This document shows positions 1 to 43,314 of a DNA stretch of 64,000 nt, piece by piece. Source of the DNA: Escherichia coli (GTDB lineage Bacteria; Pseudomonadota; Gammaproteobacteria; Enterobacterales; Enterobacteriaceae); the NCBI RefSeq assembly GCF_044324785.1, contig NZ_CP172127.1; one strand, written 5' to 3'. The stretch's first letter is position 1. The number at the start of each line of letters is the position of its first letter. The translations under genes and the position numbers were made by a program. Under the pieces are notes generated by a model that was not told the DNA's origin, ran no database searches, and saw only the letters and a list, made by a program, of their open reading frames with translations.

Positions 1-1
1 C

Positions 2-3000
2 GGTCTTGGCGTGATGACCCGCGGTGTGACCGATGACAGCGGTACCTTGCAGTTACAACATATATCGCCGGAACGTTCATACATTCTGGGTAAAGATGCT
101 GAAGGCGGCGTTTTTGTCTCCGAGAATTTTTTCTACGAAAGCGAAATCTACAACACCCGCTTGTATATCTTTACCGACCGCCCTCTGTATCGTGCAGGCG
201 ATCGTGTTGATGTCAAAGTGATGGGCCGCGAGTTCCACGACCCGTTGCATTCATCCCCCATCGTCAGCGCCCCGGCGAAGCTTTCAGTGCTGGACGCCAA
301 CGGCAGTCTGTTGCAAACCGTCAATGTCACGCTTGATGCGCGTAATGGCGGGCAGGGGAGTTTCCGCCTGCCAGAAAATGCCGTCGCCGGAGGTTATGAG
401 TTACGCCTGGCTTACCGCAAACAGGTCTATAGCAGCAGTTTTCGCGTGGCAAACTACATCAAGCCACATTTCGAGATTGGTTTAGCTCTCGACAAAAAAG
501 AGTTCAAAACAGGCGAAGCGGTCAGCGGCAAACTGCAACTGCTTTACCCGGATGGAGAGCCGGTAAAAGATGCCCGCGTGCAGTTAAGTTTGCGCGCTCA
601 GCAATTATCAATGGTCGGTAACGATTTGCGTTATGCCGGACGTTTCCCGGTGTCGCTGGAAGGCAGTGAAACGGTTTCCGACGATAATGGTCATGTGGCG
701 TTGAATCTCCCCGCCGCCGATAAACCGAGCCGTTATTTGTTAACCGTCTCCGCCAGTGACGGCGCGGCGTATCGAGTTACCACCACCAAAGAGATCCTCA
801 TTGAACGCGGTCTGGCGCATTACTCTTTAAGTACCGCCGCACAATACAGTAATAGCGGTGAATTGGTTGTGTTCCGTTATGCCGCGCTGGAATCTTCAAA
901 ACAGGTTCCTGTTACGTATGAATGGTTGCGTCTCGAAGACCGCACGAGCCACAGCGGAGATCTACCGTCTGGCGGCAAATCCTTTACCGTCAATTTCGAT
1001 AAACCTGGCAACTACAATCTGACATTACGCGATAAAGACGGCTTAATTCTCGCCGGGTTAAGCCATGCAGTCAGCGGTAAGGGCAGCACGTCGCATACTG
1101 GTACGGTAGATATCGTGGCAGATAAAACGCTGTACCAGCCTGGCGAAACCTCGAAGATGCTGATTACCTTCCCGGAGCCAATTGATGAAGCATTATTGAC
1201 GCTGGAACGCGATCGCATTGAACAGCAGTCGCTGCTATCGCATCCGGCAAACTGGCTGACGTTACAACGTTTAAACGATACCCAGTATGAAGCCCGCATA
1301 CCAGTGAGCAATTCCTTTGCGCCTAACATCACTTTTTCGGTGCTGTATACCCGTAACGGTCAGTACAGTTTTCAGAACGCCGGGATCAAAGTTGCCGTTC
1401 CCCAGCTGGATATCCGGGTGAAAACGGACAAAACCCATTACCAGCCTGGTGAACTGGTCAATGTCGAATTAACCTCGTCGCTGAAAGGTAAACCTGTTTC
1501 TGCGCAGCTAACGGTTGGTGTGGTCGATGAAATGATCTACGCGCTGCAACCGGAAATCGCGCCGAATATCGGCAAATTTTTCTATCCGCTGGGGCGTAAC
1601 AATGTGCGTACCAGCTCCAGTCTGTCGTTTATCAGCTACGACCAGGCGCTCTCCAGCGAGCCGGTTGCGCCTGGCGCGACTAACCGCAGCGAGCGGCGAG
1701 TAAAAATGCTTGAACGTCCACGGCGTGAAGAGGTGGATACCGCGGCATGGATGCCGTCACTCACAACCGATAAACAAGGCAAAGCGTATTTCACGTTCCT
1801 GATGCCTGATTCGTTAACCCGTTGGCGCATCACGGCACGTGGGATGAACGGCGACGGGCTGGTCGGGCAGGGGCGTGCTTATCTTCGTTCGGAAAAAAAT
1901 CTCTACATGAAGTGGAGTATGCCAACGGTGTATCGCATGGGCGACAAACCGGCGGCAGGACTGTTTATCTTCAGTCAGCAGGATAACGAACCGGTGGCGC
2001 TGGTGACTAAGTTTGCAGGCGACGAGATGCGCCAGACGCTGACACTGCACAAAGGGGCGAATTATATTTCGCTGGCGCAGAACATTCAGCAATCTGGCTT
2101 GTTAAGCGCAGAACTGCAACAAAATGGGCAAGTGCAGGACAGCATTAGCACAAAACTGTTTTTTGTGGATAACAGCTGGCCCGTTGAACAGCAGAAAAAT
2201 GTCATGCTTGGCGGTGGCGATAACGCGTTGATGTTGCCTGAGCAGGCGAGCAATATCCGGCTACAAAGTAGCGAAACGCCGCAGGAGATTTTCCGTAACA
2301 ATCTTGATGCGTTAGTCGATGAACCGTGGGGTGGGGTGATCAACACCGGTAGCCGTCTGATCCCGCTCAGTCTCACCTGGCGTTCACTTGCCGATCATCA
2401 AAGTGCCGCCGCTAACGACATTCGTCAGATGATTCAGGATAACCGTCTGCGGCTGATGCAACTGGCGGGGCCCGGAGCGCGCTTTACCTGGTGGGGTGAA
2501 GATGGCAATGGCGACGCCTTCCTGACGGCATGGGCATGGTACGCCGACTGGCAGGCCAGCCAGGCGCTCGGCGTAACGCAACAACCGGAATACTGGCAAC
2601 ATATGCTCGACAGTTATGCCGAGCAGACAGATAACATGCCGTTATTGCATCGGGCGCTGGTGCTGGCGTGGGCACAGGAGATGAATCTGCCGTGCAAAAC
2701 GTTGTTGAAAGGGTTGGATGAAGCTATCGCCCGGCGCGGAACTAAAACTGAAGATTTCTCTGAGGAAGACACCAGCGATATCAATGACAGCCTGATCCTC
2801 GATACACCGGAATCTCCACTGGCAGATGCGGTGGCAAACGTCTTAACCATGACGTTGCTGAAAAAAGCGCAGTTGAAGTCCACGGTGATGCCACAGGTTC
2901 AGCAATATGCGTGGGATAAAGCGGCAAACAGCAATCAGCCGCTGGCGCACACGGTTGTGCTGCTCAATAGCGGGGGCGACGCTACCCAGGCGGCTGCTAT

Positions 3001-3733
3001 TTTAAGTGGTTTGACCGCTGAGCAATCTACTATTGAGCGCGCGCTGGCCATGAACTGGCTGGCGAAATATATGGCGACAATGCCTCCGGTTGTGTTGCCT
3101 GCGCCTGCGGGCGCATGGGCCAAACATAAGTTAACTGGAGGGGGCGAATACTGGCGTTGGGTTGGTCAGGGCGTGCCGGACATTCTCTCTTTTGGTGACG
3201 AATTATCGCCGCAAAATGTGCAGGTCCGCTGGCGTGAACCGGCAAAAACGGCTCAACAAAGTAACATTCCGGTGACCGTTGAACGCCAGTTGTATCGGCT
3301 TATCCCTGGTGAAGAAGAGATGAGCTTTACTCTGCAACCGGTGACCAGCAATGAGATTGACAGCGATGCGCTGTATCTCGATGAAATCACGCTTACCAGC
3401 GAGCAGGATGCAGTTCTGCGCTACGGTCAGGTGGAAGTACCGCTCCCACCGGGAGCCGACGTTGAGCGCACAACATGGGGCATTTCGGTCAATAAACCCA
3501 ACGCCGCGAAACAGCAGGGGCAATTGCTGGAAAAAGCGCGTAATGAAATGGGCGAACTGGCCTATATGGTGCCGGTGAAAGAACTGACGGGAACGGTCAC
3601 TTTCCGCCATTTGCTGCGCTTCTCGCAAAAAGGGCAATTCGTTCTGCCTCCTGCTCGTTATGTGCGTTCCTATGCACCTGCACAGCAAAGTGTTGCGGCA
3701 GGGAGTGAATGGCCCGGGATGCAGGTGAAATAA
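2..3733 (+). CDS. yfaS: alpha-2-macroglobulin family protein, C-terminal ~1240 codons; 5' end lies upstream of the window
   Basis: Frame is open from the window edge to the stop at 3731-3733. Large secreted MG-domain-type protein, followed by the yfaQ and yfaP homologues in the order I recall from E. coli. No internal stop in the visible part. Confidence 0.75.
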
Positions 3734-5383
3734 GTGAACTGGCGCAGAATCGTCTGGCTATTGGCGTTGGTTACTCTGCCAACGCTTGCGGAGGAGACGC
3801 CGTTACAACTGGCACTGCGTGGTGCGCAGCACGATCAACTGTATCAGCTGTCGTCATCAGGCGTGACCAAAGCCTCGACATTACCTGACTCGCTCACCAC
3901 GCCGTTAGGGAGTTTGTGGAAACTGTATGTTTACGCCTGGCTGGAGGATACCCATCAACCGGAGCAGCCCTACCAGTGTCGCGGAAACTCCCCGGAAGAG
4001 GTTTATTGTTGTCAGGCTGGGGAGAGTATAACGCGCGATACCGCGCTGGTACGTTCCTGTGGGCTCTATTTTGCGCCGCAGCGGTTGCATATTGGCGCAG
4101 ATGTGTGGGGGCAATACTGGCAACAGCGTCAGGCACCTGCGTGGTTAGCGTCTCTTACTACGCTGAAGCCAGAAACCTCGGTAACGGTTAAATCGCTGCT
4201 TGATTCATTAGCGACGTTACCTGCGCAAAACAAAGCTCAGGAAGTCTTACTGGATGTGGTGCTGGACGAGGCGAAAATCGGTGTCGCATCCATGCTCGGT
4301 AGTCGGGTACGGGTGAAAACCTGGAGCTGGTTTGCCGATAATAAACAGGAAATCCGTCAGGGTGGTTTTGCCGGCTGGTTAACCGATGGTACACCGCTGT
4401 GGGTGACTGGCAGCGGCACCAGCAAAACGGTACTAACCCGTTATGCGACGGTGCTTAATCGAGTTTTGCCAGTGCCGACGCAGGTTGCCAGTGGGCAATG
4501 TGTAGAGGTGGAGCTGTTTGCCCGCTATCCGCTGAAGAAAATCACAGCGGAAAAGAGTACGACGGCAGTAAAACCCGGCGTACTTAATGGGCGCTATCGT
4601 GTGACGTTTACTAATGGTAACCACATTACGTTTGTCAGCCACGGTGAGACGACCTTACTGAGCGAAAAGGGCAAACTGAAATTGCAGTCGCATCTCGATC
4701 GTGAAGAGTACGTTGCCAGAGTTCTGGATCGCGAGGCGAAAAGTACGCCACCTGAGGCAGCGAAAGCCATGACCGTGGCGATTCGCACTTTTTTACAGCA
4801 AAACGCCAATCGGGAAGGCGATTGCCTGACCATCCCCGACAGCAGCGCCACGCAGCGTGTTTCTGCTTCGCCAGCTACCACGGGGGCGCGAACGATGACC
4901 GCCTGGACGCAGGATCTTATCTATGCGGGCGATCCGGTTCATTATCATGGCAGTCGCGCTACCGAAGGGACGCTTTCCTGGCGGCAAGCCACGGCCCAGG
5001 CGGGGCAGGGAGAGCGTTACGATCAGATACTCGCGTTTGCTTATCCCGACAATAGCCTTAGCCGCTGGGGAGCGCCACGCTCAACCTGCCAGTTATTACC
5101 CAAAGCGAAAGCCTGGCTGGCGAAAAAAATGCCGCAGTGGCGGCGTATGTTACAAGGCGAGATGGGGTACAACGAACCAGACGTGTTTGCGGTCTGTCGT
5201 TTAGTCTCAGGTTTCCCCTATACCGATCGGCAGCAGAAACGGCTGTTTATTCGTAACTTCTTTACGCTTCAGGATCGGCTGGATTTAACCCATGAGTATC
5301 TGCACCTGGCCTTTGATGGTTATCCCACCGGGCTTGATGAGAACTATATCGAAACGCTGACCCGACAATTATTAATGGACTAA
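3734..5383 (+). CDS. yfaQ: YfaQ-family protein of the alpha-2-macroglobulin operon (function unknown), 549 aa
   Basis: 549-aa ORF starting at a GTG immediately after the yfaS stop, with a hydrophobic signal-like N-terminus (MNWRRIVWLLALVTLPTLA). Size and position match yfaQ. Confidence 0.7.
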   Translation: MNWRRIVWLLALVTLPTLAEETPLQLALRGAQHDQLYQLSSSGVTKASTLPDSLTTPLGSLWKLYVYAWLEDTHQPEQPYQCRGNSPEEVYCCQAGESITRDTALVRSCGLYFAPQRLHIGADVWGQYWQQRQAPAWLASLTTLKPETSVTVKSLLDSLATLPAQNKAQEVLLDVVLDEAKIGVASMLGSRVRVKTWSWFADNKQEIRQGGFAGWLTDGTPLWVTGSGTSKTVLTRYATVLNRVLPVPTQVASGQCVEVELFARYPLKKITAEKSTTAVKPGVLNGRYRVTFTNGNHITFVSHGETTLLSEKGKLKLQSHLDREEYVARVLDREAKSTPPEAAKAMTVAIRTFLQQNANREGDCLTIPDSSATQRVSASPATTGARTMTAWTQDLIYAGDPVHYHGSRATEGTLSWRQATAQAGQGERYDQILAFAYPDNSLSRWGAPRSTCQLLPKAKAWLAKKMPQWRRMLQGEMGYNEPDVFAVCRLVSGFPYTDRQQKRLFIRNFFTLQDRLDLTHEYLHLAFDGYPTGLDENYIETLTRQLLMD

Positions 5384-5387
5384 TGCT

Positions 5388-6164
5388 ATGCGAAAGATTT
5401 TTCTTCCGTTGTTACTGGTGGCGCTTTCGCCTGTTGCCCATGGCGAAGGTGTGCAGGAAGTCGAGATTGATGCACCGCTCTCTGGCTGGCATCCGGCAGA
5501 GGGTGAAGATGCCAGTTTTTCACAATCGATCAATTACCCGGCGTCGTCCGTCAACATGGCAGATGATCAAAATATCTCAGCGCAGATCCGCGGCAAAATA
5601 AAGAATTATGCTGCGGCGGGTAAAGTTCAGCAGGGCCGGCTGGTGGTCAACGGTGCCAGTATGCCGCAGAGAATTGAATCCGATGGTTCTTTTGCGCGCC
5701 CTTATATTTTTACTGAAGGCAGCAACAGCGTGCAGGTCATCAGCCCGGATGGGCAAAGCCGACAAAAAATGCAGTTTTACTCAACGCCGGGTGCTGGAGT
5801 GATCCGCGCGCGTTTACGGCTGGTTCTCTCCTGGGATACGGACAATACCGACCTCGATCTTCACGTTGTCACACCTGATGGCGAACACGCTTGGTACGGT
5901 AACACCGTGCTGAAAAACAGTGGTGCACTGGATATGGATGTCACGACGGGGTATGGACCCGAGATTTTCGCCATGCCAGCGCCAGTTCACGGGCGCTATC
6001 AGGTGTATATCAACTACTATGGTGGGCGCAGCGAAACGGAATTGACGACCGCCCAACTGACGCTGATTACCGATGAAGGATCGGTCAATGAGAAACAGGA
6101 AACTTTCATTGTACCGATGCGTAATGCTGGCGAGTTGACGCTGGTGAAAAGTTTTGACTGGTGA
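5388..6164 (+). CDS. yfaP: YfaP-family secreted protein (function unknown), 258 aa
   Basis: 258-aa ORF with signal peptide (MRKIFLPLLLVALSPVAHG), 4 bp downstream of yfaQ. Size and synteny match yfaP. Confidence 0.7.
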   Translation: MRKIFLPLLLVALSPVAHGEGVQEVEIDAPLSGWHPAEGEDASFSQSINYPASSVNMADDQNISAQIRGKIKNYAAAGKVQQGRLVVNGASMPQRIESDGSFARPYIFTEGSNSVQVISPDGQSRQKMQFYSTPGAGVIRARLRLVLSWDTDNTDLDLHVVTPDGEHAWYGNTVLKNSGALDMDVTTGYGPEIFAMPAPVHGRYQVYINYYGGRSETELTTAQLTLITDEGSVNEKQETFIVPMRNAGELTLVKSFDW

Positions 6165-6438
6165 GCCATCCTTTCACACAACCTGGCTCTCTCTTTTTTC
6201 AGATAAGACTGCTGGGCGATCTGCCGACGCCAGGATATAACCATTAACAAGCGTCGGCAGATTGGTCATTTCTTGTTGTTCGTACGGAAAACTGTCCATT
6301 TACTCCGGCTTTCCTGATTAAGGCAATGGTTTCTAAGCGATACGCATTATTGCAATGGTGACAGAACATTGCGGTAACACGCTTTTACCGCTACCTTAAC
6401 CACACTCCATCGGTCACCTGAGGCGGAGCTTCGCCCCT

Positions 6439-9288
6439 TTGAAATACCTTGCTTCTTTTCGTACAACCCTGAAAGCCTCGCGCTACATGTTCAGAGCATT
6501 GGCGTTAGTGCTCTGGCTGTTGATTGCTTTTTCATCCGTTTTTTACATCGTTAATGCGTTACATCAGCGAGAATCGGAAATTCGTCAGGAATTTAATCTG
6601 AGTTCCGATCAGGCTCAGCGCTTTATTCAACGCACCTCTGATGTGATGAAAGAGCTGAAGTACATCGCCGAAAATCGCTTATCGGCAGAAAACGGTGTGC
6701 TTTCCCCGCGTGGACGAGAAACGCAGACGGATGTGCCTGCGTTTGAACCGCTGTTTGCTGACTCTGATTGTTCCGCAATGAGTAACACCTGGCGAGGTTC
6801 TTTGGAGTCATTGGCGTGGTTTATGCGCTACTGGCGCGATAATTTTTCTGCGGCTTACGATCTCAACCGGGTATTTTTAATCGGCAGCGATAACCTCTGC
6901 ATGGCCAATTTCGGTCTGCGTGATATGCCAGTGGAACGCGATACCGCGTTGAAAGCGTTGCATGAACGCATCAATAAATATCGAAATGCACCACAAGACG
7001 ATAGCGGCAGTAACCTCTACTGGATCAGCGAAGGTCCGCGCCCTGGCGTCGGGTATTTTTACGCGTTGACGCCAGTTTATCTGGCGAACCGGTTGCAGGC
7101 GCTTTTGGGTGTCGAGCAGACCATCCGGATGGAGAACTTTTTCTTACCTGGTACGTTGCCGATGGGGGTTACCATTCTTGATGAAAATGGTCATACCCTG
7201 ATTTCGCTTACCGGACCAGAAAGCAAAATTAAGGGCGATCCTCGCTGGATGCAGGAACGCTCCTGGTTTGGCTATACGGAAGGTTTCCGGGAGCTGGTGC
7301 TGAAGAAAAATCTGCCACCCTCATCGCTAAGCATCGTGTATTCGGTGCCGGTTGATAAGGTGCTGGAACGCATTCGCATGTTGATCCTTAACGCAATTTT
7401 GCTGAATGTGCTTGCCGGAGCTGCATTGTTTACTCTCGCGCGGATGTACGAGCGACGTATTTTCATTCCGGCGGAAAGCGATGCCCTGCGGCTGGAAGAA
7501 CATGAGCAGTTTAATCGCAAGATTGTCGCCTCCGCGCCAGTAGGTATCTGCATTTTACGTACCGCTGATGGCGTCAATATTTTAAGTAACGAACTGGCGC
7601 ATACCTATCTCAATATGCTTACGCATGAGGATCGCCAACGACTGACGCAAATTATCTGTGGGCAGCAGGTCAATTTTGTTGATGTCCTGACCAGCAACAA
7701 TACCAATCTGCAAATCAGCTTCGTCCATTCGCGCTATCGTAATGAAAACGTGGCCATTTGTGTGCTGGTGGATGTTTCTTCGCGCGTGAAGATGGAAGAG
7801 TCGTTGCAGGAGATGGCACAAGCAGCGGAACAGGCGAGCCAGTCAAAATCGATGTTCCTTGCCACCGTCAGTCATGAGCTGCGAACGCCGCTGTATGGCA
7901 TTATCGGTAACCTGGATCTGTTGCAAACCAAAGAGTTACCGAAAGGCGTCGATCGTCTGGTGACGGCAATGAACAACTCTTCCAGCCTGTTGTTGAAAAT
8001 TATCAGCGATATTCTCGATTTCTCGAAAATTGAATCAGAACAGTTGAAGATCGAACCGCGTGAGTTTTCACCGCGTGAAGTGATGAACCACATCACCGCC
8101 AACTATTTACCGCTGGTGGTACGCAAGCAGCTAGGCTTGTACTGCTTTATTGAACCGGATGTGCCAGTGGCCTTAAATGGCGACCCGATGCGTTTACAGC
8201 AGGTCATCTCCAACCTGTTGAGTAACGCCATAAAATTCACCGATACCGGCTGTATAGTTTTGCATGTTCGCGCTGATGGCGATTATCTCTCTATCCGTGT
8301 TCGCGATACCGGCGTGGGGATTCCGGCGAAAGAAGTGGTGCGCTTGTTTGATCCCTTCTTCCAGGTCGGAACGGGCGTACAGCGTAACTTCCAGGGGACC
8401 GGTCTGGGGCTGGCGATTTGTGAAAAACTGATCAGCATGATGGACGGCGACATCTCGGTAGATTCAGAACCGGGAATGGGCAGCCAGTTTACCGTGCGTA
8501 TTCCGTTGTACGGCGCTCAGTACCCGCAGAAAAAAGGCGTGGAAGGGTTGAGTGGTAAACGCTGCTGGCTGGCGGTCCGCAATGCGTCGCTCTGTCAGTT
8601 CCTGGAAACCAGTTTGCAGCGCAGCGGCATCGTCGTTACAACATACGAAGGGCAGGAACCGACTCCCGAAGATGTGTTAATCACTGACGAGGTAGTGAGC
8701 CAAAAATGGCAGGGTAGAGCGGTAGTGACCTTCTGTCGTCGCCATATTGGTATTCCGCTGGAGAAAGCGCCAGGGGAGTGGGTACACAGTGTGGCTGCCC
8801 CGCATGAGCTACCGGCATTGTTGGCGCGTATTTATTTGATCGAGATGGAGAGCGATGATCCTGCTAACGCTCTGCCGTCGACGGACAAAGCGGTCAGCGA
8901 TAACGACGATATGATGATTCTGGTCGTGGATGATCATCCGATTAACCGGCGTCTTCTGGCAGATCAGTTGGGATCGTTGGGCTATCAATGTAAAACCGCG
9001 AATGATGGCGTCGATGCGCTTAATGTACTTAGCAAGAATCATATTGATATCGTGCTTAGCGACGTCAACATGCCAAATATGGATGGTTACCGCTTGACGC
9101 AACGCATTCGTCAGTTGGGACTGACGTTGCCGGTAATCGGAGTAACTGCTAATGCGTTGGCTGAAGAGAAGCAGCGGTGTCTGGAGTCCGGTATGGACAG
9201 CTGCCTGTCGAAGCCGGTAACGCTGGATGTGATAAAACAGACGCTGACGGTATATGCCGAGAGGGTCAGGAAATCGCGGGAATCGTAG
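6439..9288 (+). CDS. rcsC: Rcs phosphorelay hybrid sensor histidine kinase RcsC, 949 aa
   Basis: N-terminus MKYLASFRTTLK, two TM segments, HisKA H-box (ATVSHELRTPLYGI), HATPase_c and a C-terminal receiver (LVVDDHPINRRL...DVNMPNMDG). 949 aa as in E. coli RcsC. Apparent TTG start. Confidence 0.93.
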   Translation: MKYLASFRTTLKASRYMFRALALVLWLLIAFSSVFYIVNALHQRESEIRQEFNLSSDQAQRFIQRTSDVMKELKYIAENRLSAENGVLSPRGRETQTDVPAFEPLFADSDCSAMSNTWRGSLESLAWFMRYWRDNFSAAYDLNRVFLIGSDNLCMANFGLRDMPVERDTALKALHERINKYRNAPQDDSGSNLYWISEGPRPGVGYFYALTPVYLANRLQALLGVEQTIRMENFFLPGTLPMGVTILDENGHTLISLTGPESKIKGDPRWMQERSWFGYTEGFRELVLKKNLPPSSLSIVYSVPVDKVLERIRMLILNAILLNVLAGAALFTLARMYERRIFIPAESDALRLEEHEQFNRKIVASAPVGICILRTADGVNILSNELAHTYLNMLTHEDRQRLTQIICGQQVNFVDVLTSNNTNLQISFVHSRYRNENVAICVLVDVSSRVKMEESLQEMAQAAEQASQSKSMFLATVSHELRTPLYGIIGNLDLLQTKELPKGVDRLVTAMNNSSSLLLKIISDILDFSKIESEQLKIEPREFSPREVMNHITANYLPLVVRKQLGLYCFIEPDVPVALNGDPMRLQQVISNLLSNAIKFTDTGCIVLHVRADGDYLSIRVRDTGVGIPAKEVVRLFDPFFQVGTGVQRNFQGTGLGLAICEKLISMMDGDISVDSEPGMGSQFTVRIPLYGAQYPQKKGVEGLSGKRCWLAVRNASLCQFLETSLQRSGIVVTTYEGQEPTPEDVLITDEVVSQKWQGRAVVTFCRRHIGIPLEKAPGEWVHSVAAPHELPALLARIYLIEMESDDPANALPSTDKAVSDNDDMMILVVDDHPINRRLLADQLGSLGYQCKTANDGVDALNVLSKNHIDIVLSDVNMPNMDGYRLTQRIRQLGLTLPVIGVTANALAEEKQRCLESGMDSCLSKPVTLDVIKQTLTVYAERVRKSRES

Positions 9289-9357: not shown

Positions 9358-9879
9358 ATGAAACATTCATTTGAAGTAAAACTTGCCGCTGTAAATCATT
9401 ACCTGGCTGGTCATGCAGGCATCATTTCTACGGCAAAACTCTTTCAACTTTCTCACACCAGCCTCTCACACTGGATTAATCTTTTTCTTCTTCACGGTCC
9501 TCGGGCACTGGATTGCAGACACAAGCGTAGCTATTCTCCTGAAGATAAACTTTGCGTGGTTCTTTATGCTCTCGGGCATTCTGAGTCTCTACCCCGGGTA
9601 GCTGCCCGGTTTAACATTCCCAGCCACAACACGGTTAAAAACTGGATAAAAGGCTACCGCAAATCTGGTAATGAGGCCTTTATCAGGCGCAGGAAGGAGA
9701 AAAGCATGACCCGTTCTGATGATACCCATGAAAACGAGGCAAACATGACGCCGGAAGAGATGAAGAATGAGCTGCGTTATCTTCGCGCAGAAAATGCATA
9801 TCTGAAAGCCATGCAGGAGCATCTCCTGGAAAAAAAGCGCCAGGAGCTGGAGAAAAAACGAAAGTCATCCGGAGCCTGA
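9358..9879 (+). CDS. IS3-family transposase OrfA (HTH DNA-binding / leucine-zipper part)
   Basis: MKHSFEVKLAAVNHY... with a helix-turn-helix region and a C-terminal coiled-coil (LRYLRAENAYLKAMQEHLLEKKR) typical of IS3-family OrfA. The ORF track starts at GTG 9349; ATG at 9358 is the more likely start. Confidence 0.8.
   Translation: MKHSFEVKLAAVNHYLAGHAGIISTAKLFQLSHTSLSHWINLFLLHGPRALDCRHKRSYSPEDKLCVVLYALGHSESLPRVAARFNIPSHNTVKNWIKGYRKSGNEAFIRRRKEKSMTRSDDTHENEANMTPEEMKNELRYLRAENAYLKAMQEHLLEKKRQELEKKRKSSGA
9831..9837 (+). other. Candidate -1 programmed ribosomal frameshift heptamer A_AAA_AAG
   Basis: In the orfA frame the codons read gaA AAA AAG. orfB (stop at 10704-10706) is in the -1 frame relative to orfA, as in IS3-family OrfAB fusions. 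Confidence 0.6.
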
Positions 9880-9983
9880 GGTGCGGACACTGCCAGTCTG
9901 ACCTGTTAAAGGCTGCAGGGCTGGCCAGAAGCACGCTGTACTACCAGCTGTCACTGCAGAAGGCTAAGGACAAGTATGCTGAT

Positions 9984-10740
<757 letters not shown>

Positions 10741-14461: not shown

Positions 14462-14554
14462 AAAAAAAACCGGATGCGAGGCATCCGGTTGAAATAGGGG
14501 TAAACAGACATTCAGAAATGAATGACGGTAATAAATAAAGTTAATGATGATAGC
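14462..14554 (-). ncRNA. micF: micF antisense sRNA (represses ompF translation)
   Basis: The reverse complement reads GCTATCATCATTAACTTTATTTATTACCGTCATTCATTTCTGAATGTCTGTTTACCCCTATTTCAACCGGATGCCTCGCATCCGGTTTTTTTT, recognised as micF with its intrinsic terminator. It is divergent from ompC. Confidence 0.9.
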
Positions 14555-14709
14555 GGGAGTTATTCTAGTTGCGAGTGAAGGTTTTGTTTTGACATTCAGT
14601 GCTGTCAAATACTTAAGAATAAGTTATTGATTTTAACCTTGAATTATTATTGCTTGATGTTAGGTGCTTATTTCGCCATTCCGCAATAATCTTAAAAAGT
14701 TCCCTTCTA

Positions 14710-22556: not shown

Positions 22557-22680
22557 ATGTGCCACATCCGGCATGGTATGCCGGATGTGGCGTATGCTGA
22601 TAAGACGCGCCAGCGTCGCATCAGGCAACCGGCTTGGGCGTTAGATGTCGGATGCGGCGTGACCGCCTTATCCGACCTAC
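22557..22680. repeat. BIME (several REP/palindromic units) between convergent mqo and eco
   Basis: gccggatgtggcg...gataagacgcgcc...gcatcaggc and gtcggatgcggcgtgaccgccttatccgacctac are typical REP consensus units. Confidence 0.7.
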
Positions 22681-39435: not shown

Positions 39436-39512
39436 TGGTCGGCACGAGAGGATTTGAACCTCCGACCCCCGACACCCCATGACGGTGCGCTACCAGGCTG
39501 CGCTACGTGCCG
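39436..39512 (-). tRNA. proL: tRNA-Pro (anticodon GGG)
   Basis: The reverse complement reads CGGCACGTAGCGCAGCCTGGTAGCGCACCGTCATGGGGTGTCGGGGGTCGGAGGTTCAAATCCTCTCGTGCCGACCA: a 77-nt cloverleaf with encoded CCA. Confidence 0.9.

Positions 39513-42921: not shown

Positions 42922-43314
<393 letters not shown>

Follow-up and report, generated by a model that had tools for sequence, protein, structure and literature searches.

Does an alpha-2-macroglobulin (A2M) that lacks the thioester motif, and whose gene is listed as a pseudogene in Escherichia coli K-12, still belong to a working system? The question is raised by the first 6,164 nucleotides (nt) of a stretch of E. coli DNA (contig NZ_CP172127.1 of assembly GCF_044324785.1; 64,000 nt, hereafter the window), in which yfaS, yfaQ and yfaP follow one another in uninterrupted frames and the visible part of YfaS contains no C-x-E-Q (CxEQ) motif. 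We found that this arrangement is real, but that it is the normal state of an already known system: yfaA-yfaT-yfaS-yfaQ-yfaP corresponds in enterobacteria to the mag operon of Pseudomonas aeruginosa, and the window holds its distal three genes. Within this mag-type operon, YfaS is probably a periplasmic type II A2M that acts as a membrane-tethered bait-and-trap device without forming a covalent bond.

An open reading frame (ORF) scan of the window showed that frame 2 of the plus strand stays open for 1243 sense codons, starting at nt 2 and closed by the TAA at 3731-3733, a run expected by chance with a probability of about (61/64)^1243 (~1e-26). The open yfaS frame of the first-pass annotation was thus confirmed, its 1240 codons being those counted from the first GTG (ORF list entry 11..3733). 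Because the window starts at codon 292 of 1534, the 291 N-terminal codons lie outside it. yfaQ extends from a GTG at 3734, the base following the yfaS stop, to a TAA ending at 5383 (549 aa), with AGGTGA 6-11 nt 5' of its start codon, and yfaP from an ATG at 5388 to 6164 (258 aa). The tight spacing described earlier therefore holds for the 4-nt gap between yfaQ and yfaP, but the gap between yfaS and yfaQ is 0 nt rather than 1. Promoter and terminator scans inside the operon gave nothing above chance, NCBIfam contained no meaningful model for YfaS, YfaQ or YfaP, and a PADLOC scan returned no match for the operon genes, which are thus not listed as an anti-phage defense system.

For the part of the operon upstream of the window, contigs carrying the same allele were found by an exact-protein look-up with YfaQ. 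One of them (L007) is 100% identical to the window across all 9519 shared bases, and two others (L009 and L006) differ from it by one and two bases. The yfaS frame of L007 runs through 1553 codons without a stop, and an ATG preceded by GGAAGGA yields the 1534-aa protein that is also annotated in K-12; the two genes before it, yfaT (207 aa) and yfaA (562 aa), are whole as well, with gyrA upstream. An upstream stop or frameshift, which had been named as the observation that would overturn the idea of an intact operon, is therefore absent from this identical proxy. The automatic annotation of L007 starts yfaS at a GTG (5396 versus 5486), giving 1504 aa and cutting off a hydrophobic signal sequence; a start at the ATG that lies 90 nt further upstream, in overlap with the end of yfaT, restores MDTQRF...GLANA/DD and the 1534 aa. 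The N-terminus reads MDTQRF...FSGAIAAC25LSLSLVGTGLANA/DD, where ANA/DD matches the A-x-A/[DE][DE] of orthologues. IAAC resembles a lipobox, but at the position of ANA/DD the orthologues carry plain A-x-A sites for signal peptidase I, which makes C25 an unlikely lipobox Cys.

In K-12 MG1655, yfaS (b4500) lies between yfaT and yfaQ and is flagged as a pseudogene. The alignment of the window with K-12 contains 0 indels in 6164 nt, with 97% nucleotide identity in yfaS, and what disrupts the K-12 gene is one in-frame stop: codon 1368 of 1534 reads TGA there and TGG (Trp) in the window. The disruption of yfaS in K-12, as stated in the first-pass annotation, was thereby borne out, with the window open at the lesion; a frameshift was ruled out, as the alignment shows one nonsense codon. 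Using a 55-nt query in which each 28-nt seed word spanned the variant base, we found the TGA allele in 364 of 5426 complete genomes, and all 12 genomes shown were laboratory or K-12-type strains. Positions 1-6400 of the window match 5425/5426 complete E. coli genomes, and for 5357 of the 5426, 80% or more of the query is covered at one place with 95-99% identity, the genes under the matches being annotated as alpha-2-macroglobulin family protein, yfaQ and yfaP. The annotation was then examined in 18 genomes spaced evenly along the match ranking: yfaS is intact in 16, and all five operon genes are intact in 13. The main 90%-identity cluster of YfaS proteins contains 40,950 member sequences. Outside the K-12 lineage, an E. 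coli strain normally has yfaS intact.

The lesions that do occur (loci L001, L002, L010, L014, L015 and L023) all differ from one another. SCU-102 has a +1 C frameshift in yfaS at about window position 2106; O157:H7 493/89, a yfaS frameshift and a yfaQ stop; ETEC4085, a yfaT stop; an ST38 isolate, a yfaA frameshift; and in MBT-5 yfaA and the 5' part of yfaT are gone, beside a nleA-bearing insertion. The ratio of nonsynonymous to synonymous substitution rates (dN/dS) against K-12 (Nei-Gojobori) was 0.081 for visible yfaS, 0.118 for yfaQ, 0.051 for yfaP and 0.096 for the part of yfaS that encodes the thioester domain (TED)-like region. The three genes are under purifying selection, yet the operon has been lost repeatedly in single lineages. 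In strain GPEC617, yfaS (L016 2519-7066) is 4548 nt long, 33 nt above the usual length, and is annotated as intact, implying an in-frame insertion of 11 codons.

YfaS shows the tandem macroglobulin (MG) domains and the bait-region domain of the A2M/C3/TEP superfamily and, in its model, the TED fold and C-terminal MG domain as well; CxEQ alone is missing, which does not exclude membership because accepted members (complement C5 and MagD, the P. aeruginosa mag A2M) also lack it. Pfam detected MG2 (E 2.8e-26), A2M_BRD, A2M (E 2.4e-12), bMG10 and a weak MG4, and no TED family in the TED region at E up to 10. C-x-E-Q is absent from all six frames of 1-3733, and the sole Cys of visible YfaS is residue 898 (nt 2693-2695), in agreement with the first-pass annotation. 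In the absence of this motif, covalent trapping through a Cys-Gln thioester is impossible, and the earlier statement that YfaS could not trap proteases in this way stands, with the aligned site reading G-V-I-N.

The position of this site was given by two comparisons with K-12 YfhM (ECAM). A weak BLASTP high-scoring segment pair, covering stretches that include YPYGCLEQTASGLFP and FALWDKNGDEEYWLTAY, showed the same pairing as hhalign, in which a profile of 20 YfaS orthologues gave one 772-column alignment with YfhM (probability 98.1%, E 1.3e-13). In both, ECAM Y1183-P-Y-G-C1187-L-E-Q1190 falls on YfaS E774-P-W-G-G778-V-I-N781, so that G778 and N781 (G1069 and N1072 in full-length numbering) stand opposite C1187 and Q1190. 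In the same column block of the orthologue alignment, several Pseudomonas proteins read YPYGCVEQ, others YP[YW]GGVEQ, and those of Escherichia, Superficieibacter, Serratia and Yersinia EP[WYF]GGV[IV]N; the register is confirmed by the orthologues that still read YPYGCVEQ in this column. WWGEDGNGD, earlier proposed as the thioester-equivalent stretch, does not occupy the site: by BLASTP and hhalign it aligns with ECAM 'ALWDKNGDE', ~50 residues downstream. W830, W831 and G832 of this stretch are invariant in the family. The thioester position thus does lie elsewhere, at EPWGGVIN (nt 2321-2344), but it is not intact there, and only its being elsewhere and intact had been put forward as grounds for abandoning the loss. 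A single-sequence phmmer search of YfaS against PDB sequences gave only weak matches to C5 and CD109, missed ECAM and left the thioester site unplaced.

The decay extends beyond the Cys. In bacterial A2Ms the thioester pocket consists of two TED tyrosines (ECAM Y1183 and Y1185) and a Met-Tyr pair in the macroglobulin domain at the C-terminus (CTMG) (Fyfe et al., PMC4498604). At the seven site and pocket positions YfaS has E774, W776, G778, I780, N781, S1223 and Y1224: Cys is replaced by Gly778, Glu by Ile780, Gln by Asn781, pocket Tyr1183 by Glu774 and pocket Tyr1185 by Trp776, and in R-S-Y-A-P (S-M-Y-V-P in ECAM) the pocket Met has become Ser with the Tyr retained. Five of the seven were counted as replaced. 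A ColabFold/AF2 model of visible residues 701-1243 (pLDDT 80.9, pTM 0.80) consists of helices over model residues 60-323 followed by a beta domain. The best PDB matches found by Foldseek for this 543-aa model were native Sa-A2M (4U48) and ECAM (4ZIU/5A42), with E of 6e-16 to 3e-15, and bacterial A2Ms ranked before C5, A2ML1, CD109 and TEP1; TM scores were higher for native than for activated forms. As modeled, YfaS keeps the TED fold, with the thioester chemistry gone.

Two classes of bacterial A2M have been distinguished by the Dessen and Attree groups, type I with CXEQ and beside pbpC and type II without CXEQ, and E. coli has both (PMC5764988, PMC3735191). YfaS has neither the CLEQ and Tyr/Tyr/Met/Tyr pocket of type I (ECAM/YfhM-type) proteins nor a pbpC neighbor: the genes beside it in the window are yfaQ, yfaP and rcsC, and pbpC of K-12 adjoins yfhM elsewhere. 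It lacks CXEQ, as in the definition of type II (PMC5764988), and is close over its full length to MagD-type proteins, for which Pseudomonas proteins named YfaS/A2M family stood in. The neighborhood agrees, with yfaQ (DUF2300) and yfaP (YfaP_C) in the window and yfaA and yfaT upstream in L007 and in all sampled E. coli. In a Pseudomonas locus (L027) the order is YfaP_C (268 aa), DUF2138 (575), MagC (216), A2M (1514), DUF2300 (545) and YfaP_C (268), and the order DUF2138, MagC, A2M, DUF2300, YfaP_C is common to Pseudomonas, Yersinia (L028) and three distant metagenomic loci (L029-L031). Together with the complex masses in PMC5764988, the L027 order identifies MagA and MagF as YfaP-like, MagB as YfaA, MagC as YfaT and MagE as YfaQ.

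The earlier view that the function of these proteins is unresolved therefore holds only in part, as the type II class and its partners have been studied as MagD and MagA-F (PMC3735191, PMC5764988, PMC12663445). MagD, which has no Cys and is insensitive to methylamine, is found in the periplasm in association with the inner membrane (PMC3735191). When its bait ANRSERG was swapped for a tobacco etch virus (TEV) protease site, it was cut and co-eluted non-covalently with TEV; MagA, MagB and MagF each bind MagD 1:1, with MagB anchoring and stabilizing it, and deletion of magE blocks MagD processing, with no stable binary complex of MagE and MagD (PMC5764988). A 2025 CRISPR interference study found that the mag operon guards P. 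aeruginosa against the peptidoglycan-targeting type VI secretion system (T6SS) effectors VgrG3 and Tae1, and called the molecular mechanism open (PMC12663445). Taken as a whole, the first-pass annotation was right about the intact, coupled frames, the disruption in K-12 and the missing thioester, but not about WWGEDGNGD or a wholly unresolved function.

The sequence comparisons themselves show that the genes are whole, which domains they encode, where the thioester site lies and how far it has decayed, and that the operon is conserved and its genes are under purifying selection. By analogy with Pseudomonas, from which export, localization, trapping and the partners' roles are carried over to E. 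coli, the complex would sit at the inner membrane, facing the periplasm, with YfaA/MagB as its anchor. An incoming hydrolase would cut the exposed bait TNRSERR, of which N561, S563 and R565 are invariant in the family; the cut would set off a conformational change, and the enzyme would then be held sterically and non-covalently. YfaP may bind the macroglobulin directly and stabilize it. YfaQ would be required for processing or maturation of the macroglobulin and, judging from its predicted folds, probably contacts peptidoglycan, tying the complex there like YfaT.

Several points weigh against this reading. The functional evidence was all obtained with a Pseudomonas relative that is 53% identical and whose motif we infer to be GVEQ, not GVIN; cleavage of MagD by TEV was incomplete, and trapping was seen only in vitro (PMC5764988). 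The mag study calls the true function unclear, with protection directed against lysozyme-like and amidase/peptidase effectors rather than classical proteases (PMC12663445). The independent inactivating lesions in 5 of the 18 sampled E. coli genomes and in K-12 indicate that the operon is dispensable in many settings. Finally, the window begins only after yfaA, yfaT, the promoter and 291 codons of yfaS, the integrity of which is taken from the identical contig.

The domains of YfaQ bear on a second explanation of the complex. Pfam placed DUF2300 on YfaQ twice (aa 84-205 and 412-532) and SpoIID above its gathering score. YfaQ and YfaP had no relatives among the sequences of solved structures, and a profile search with YfaQ gave only marginal SpoIID matches; a ColabFold model of YfaQ (21-sequence alignment, pLDDT 81.2, overall pTM 0.47) matches two kinds of solved structure. 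The N-terminal domain is predicted to have the alpha/beta plus all-alpha fold of penicilloyl-serine transferases, and the central domain agrees with SpoIID/LytB in both family model and fold; YfaQ thus models as a class-D beta-lactamase/penicillin-binding protein (PBP)-like domain fused to a SpoIID-like domain. Of its putative active-site motifs, S60-L-W-K63 and K195-T196-W were placed by inference, S108-C-G is the sole candidate for the middle motif, and a SxN-type motif is not recognizable. The SpoIID-like part carries the family-invariant REEYVARVLxRE334A and DSSxxQRV, and in the alignment with 4RWR the counterpart of E334 is the Glu of SpoIID '...ASEM...', the putative catalytic residue.

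YfaQ thus resembles class-D beta-lactamases, BlaR1/MecR1 sensors and PBP transpeptidases in its SxxK at a helix start and KT on a strand, and SpoIID/SleC lytic transglycosylases in its SpoIID match above the gathering score. It differs from beta-lactamases and PBPs in having no sequence-level match to any such family, KTW instead of KTG and no clear SxN/SxV, and from these and SpoIID in its fusion to a second DUF2300 repeat with HEYLH, its activity being a prediction from the model. The HEYLH sequence was considered as a zinc site, a speculative reading that was dropped because HEYLH stands at the DUF2300 repeat position of RVKTWSW and no metallopeptidase fold was matched. Both YfaQ folds act on peptidoglycan, and the type I A2M is likewise paired with a PBP (PBP1c).

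It is conceivable, though we consider it unlikely, that the complex is mainly a device for guarding or repairing peptidoglycan, with YfaS as a scaffold or decoy for peptidoglycan hydrolases (T6SS effectors, lysozymes) and with YfaQ and the NlpC/P60-like YfaT acting on or sensing the sacculus. Protection by MagD extends to VgrG3 (lysozyme-like) and Tae1 and not to other effector classes (PMC12663445), but MagD also retained a protease (PMC5764988). The YfaQ family keeps S60-x-x-K63, K195-T196 and the SpoIID-like E334 invariant, although any YfaQ activity is predicted at the level of the fold from a model with a pTM of 0.47, inferred motif placement and an unrecognizable middle SxN-type motif, and MagE formed no stable binary complex with MagD (PMC5764988). 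The Pfam name of the YfaT family, MagC, its faint NLPC_P60 match and the pairing of type I A2Ms with PBP1c suit a role at the sacculus; against this, the bait region and the whole A2M architecture are strongly conserved, the bait being nearly invariant, which fits a cleavage-triggered trap. That the operon is a decaying remnant in Escherichia, with a thioester-less YfaS of little function and frames that are open only because they have not yet been hit, is very improbable: the five replaced site and pocket residues, the many truncated YfaS clusters in the protein database and the independent lesions in K-12, SCU-102, 493/89, ETEC4085, ST38 and MBT-5 are outweighed by dN/dS that stays at 0.05-0.12 across the three genes and is 0.096 in the TED-like region, by the presence of the locus in 5357/5426 genomes with yfaS intact in 16/18 and the whole operon in 13/18, and by GV[IV]N being common to Superficieibacter, Serratia and Yersinia at 53-75% identity, so that a protein without the thioester has long been kept.

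An exhaustive phmmer search with visible YfaS residues 701-1243 against 1.84 billion cluster representatives gave only 206 clusters at E up to 1e-3; for a motif census, representatives of 50%-identity clusters were aligned to a hidden Markov model of the motif region, those of 1300 aa or more being taken as full-length. In the majority of full-length representatives (31/40), the position of YfaS G778-N781 holds C-x-E-Q (CVEQ, CIEQ, CAEQ or CTEQ). The remaining 9/40 have no Cys there and read GVEQ (twice), GVEL, SLEQ, GAEG, SAEQ, GVEH, TVEQ and DVEH. With 31 of 40 relatives keeping the motif, the absence of CXEQ does not define the YfaS/MagD family. The four CxEQ proteins P0080, P0243, P0278 and P0328 all lie in mag-type operons (4/4); at the P0243 locus, where Pfam labels fall only on the A2M, DUF2300 and YfaP_C genes, the end of the contig just upstream leaves the operon only partly labeled. 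In the 20-sequence alignment, YPYG and R-M-Y-A-P, and with them the Tyr/Tyr and Met-Tyr pocket, persist in all four CVEQ orthologues.

The majority state, and parsimony with type I and eukaryotic proteins, imply that the thioester motif is ancestral in the yfa/mag family; the E. coli and P. aeruginosa A2Ms would then be secondary losses, with bond formation by the motifs of their relatives putative. We see about equal grounds for accepting and for doubting the broader proposal that the mag family is not intrinsically thioester-less, that YfaS and MagD represent secondary, independent losses (a CVEQ, GVEQ, GV[IV]N series, the Cys having been replaced in at least nine different ways across the family), that YfaQ/MagE is a fused PBP/beta-lactamase-fold and SpoIID-fold protein acting on peptidoglycan, and that both A2M types are paired with a PBP-fold protein (PBP1c or YfaQ). 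A second E. coli A2M form without the thioester motif was reportedly described by Budd et al. in 2004, as later work cites it. The CxEQ-bearing relatives in mag operons contradict the usual statement that the type II class lacks the thioester, and CVEQ is not mentioned in the macroglobulin literature that we searched, a search not extending to Budd et al. 2004.

If mag-type A2Ms do usually keep the thioester, the accepted type I/II dichotomy is mis-stated and the classes would have to be redefined by operon and lineage, and the CVEQ, GVEQ and GVIN orthologues would form a natural experimental series for what the thioester adds to trapping. A PBP-like and SpoIID-like YfaQ would in turn link the complex to peptidoglycan, fitting the protection by mag against peptidoglycan-targeting T6SS effectors. 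Three annotations need correction in any case: the pseudogene of K-12 results from a nonsense mutation specific to its lineage, EPWGGVIN is the stretch equivalent to the thioester site, and the 1504-aa start of YfaS drops the signal peptide.

Table 1. Coordinates of the operon features in the window and of thioester-motif relatives in other loci; residue numbers of YfaS are those of its visible part unless stated.
Feature	Position	Strand	Basis
yfaS, 3' 81% (codons 292-1534 and stop); probable type II, MagD-type bacterial alpha-2-macroglobulin	2..3733	+	Open frame, Pfam, K-12 alignment
MG2 macroglobulin domain, aa 53-149	158..448	+	Pfam PF01835, E 2.8e-26
A2M bait-region domain, aa 370-515	1109..1546	+	Pfam PF07703, E 1.7e-17
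TNRSERR, counterpart of MagD bait ANRSERG	1679..1699	+	Orthologue alignment; MagD bait in PMC5764988
Predicted all-helical TED-like domain without thioester, aa 760-1023	2279..3070	+	AF2 model, Foldseek
EPWGGVIN, place of lost thioester motif (ECAM YPYGCLEQ)	2321..2344	+	BLASTP, hhalign, family columns
WWGEDGNGD, conserved TED motif 3' of thioester site	2489..2515	+	Aligns to ECAM 'ALWDKNGDE'
TGG (Trp), residue 1077, full-length 1368; TGA in K-12	3230..3232	+	K-12 alignment
C-terminal macroglobulin domain bMG10/CTMG; R-S-Y-A-P at 3665-3679	3353..3679	+	Pfam PF17973, alignment
yfaQ, 549 aa, probably secreted; magE counterpart by gene order	3734..5383	+	ORF, Pfam DUF2300 x2 and SpoIID, Pseudomonas locus L027
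YfaQ N-terminal class-D beta-lactamase/PBP-like domain (predicted), aa 24-250	3803..4483	+	Predicted structure
YfaQ invariant PLGS60xWK63L	3902-3925	+	Start of helix 59-72
YfaQ invariant RVK195T196WSW	4310-4330	+	On strand 192-200
YfaQ SpoIID-like segment, aa 312-374, REEYVARVLDRE334A ... DSSATQ	4667..4855	+	
YfaQ C-terminal invariant DLTHEYLHLAF, HExxH-like; invariant H520, E521, H524	5282..5314	+	Family alignment
yfaP, 258 aa, predicted signal peptide; DUF2135/YfaP_C aa 199-244 at nt 5982-6119	5388..6164	+	ORF, Pfam PF09906
yfaP-rcsC spacer without the atoSCDAEB cluster present here in K-12	6165..6438	.	K-12 map, genome matches, SCU-102 and related loci
CxEQ-bearing (CVEQ or CTEQ) YfaS/MagD-family A2Ms in mag-type operons	L027 8001-12545; L029 341-4966; L030 7001-11683; L031 7001-11548		

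Beyond the operon, rcsC (6439-9288) directly follows yfaP, with the atoSCDAEB breakpoint immediately 3' of the yfaP stop; ato is likewise absent in 7 genomes of a 24-genome spread sample. An IS3-family element lies between rcsC and rcsB (~9358-10706 of the window), is 98.8% identical to copies annotated as IS1397, and is present at this place in the near-identical contigs L004 and L005 and not in SCU-102 or K-12. Rfam matches at gathering level, all on the minus strand (14462-14555, 22595-22677, 39439-39512 and 43228-43253), are MicF upstream of an ompC-like ORF, naRNA4, a tRNA and the L25 ribosomal-protein leader, which are ordinary E. coli chromosome content.

Among known systems, MagD and MagABCDEF are the closest: Pseudomonas orthologues are 53-54% identical over 99-100% of visible YfaS, with the same neighbors in the same order; the thioester Cys is likewise missing and the bait, (A/T)NRSER, is conserved. 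They differ in that E. coli, like Yersinia, has five genes, without the leading magA paralogue of yfaP, and in that close Pseudomonas relatives, reading YP[YW]GGVEQ, have lost the Cys alone, whereas in EPWGGVIN of YfaS the Glu, the Gln and a pocket Tyr are missing as well; here the motif state of MagD follows from the statement that it has no Cys (PMC3735191). ECAM (YfhM) and Sa-A2M (5A42, 4ZIU, 4U48) belong to the same superfamily, have their MG, bait and TED domains and the C-terminal MG domain in the order seen in YfaS and are the best structural matches; ECAM, with ~21% identity to YfaS, is a covalent trap with CLEQ (C1187-Q1190) and the full Tyr/Tyr/Met/Tyr pocket, encoded beside pbpC, and none of this is found in YfaS. 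Complement C5, the best PDB sequence match (E 1e-4), has, like other thioester-less A2M/C3/TEP members, a TED fold without a thioester, but is eukaryotic, secreted and two-chained, with unrelated partners and function; the resemblance tells us only that loss of the bond need not remove the TED.

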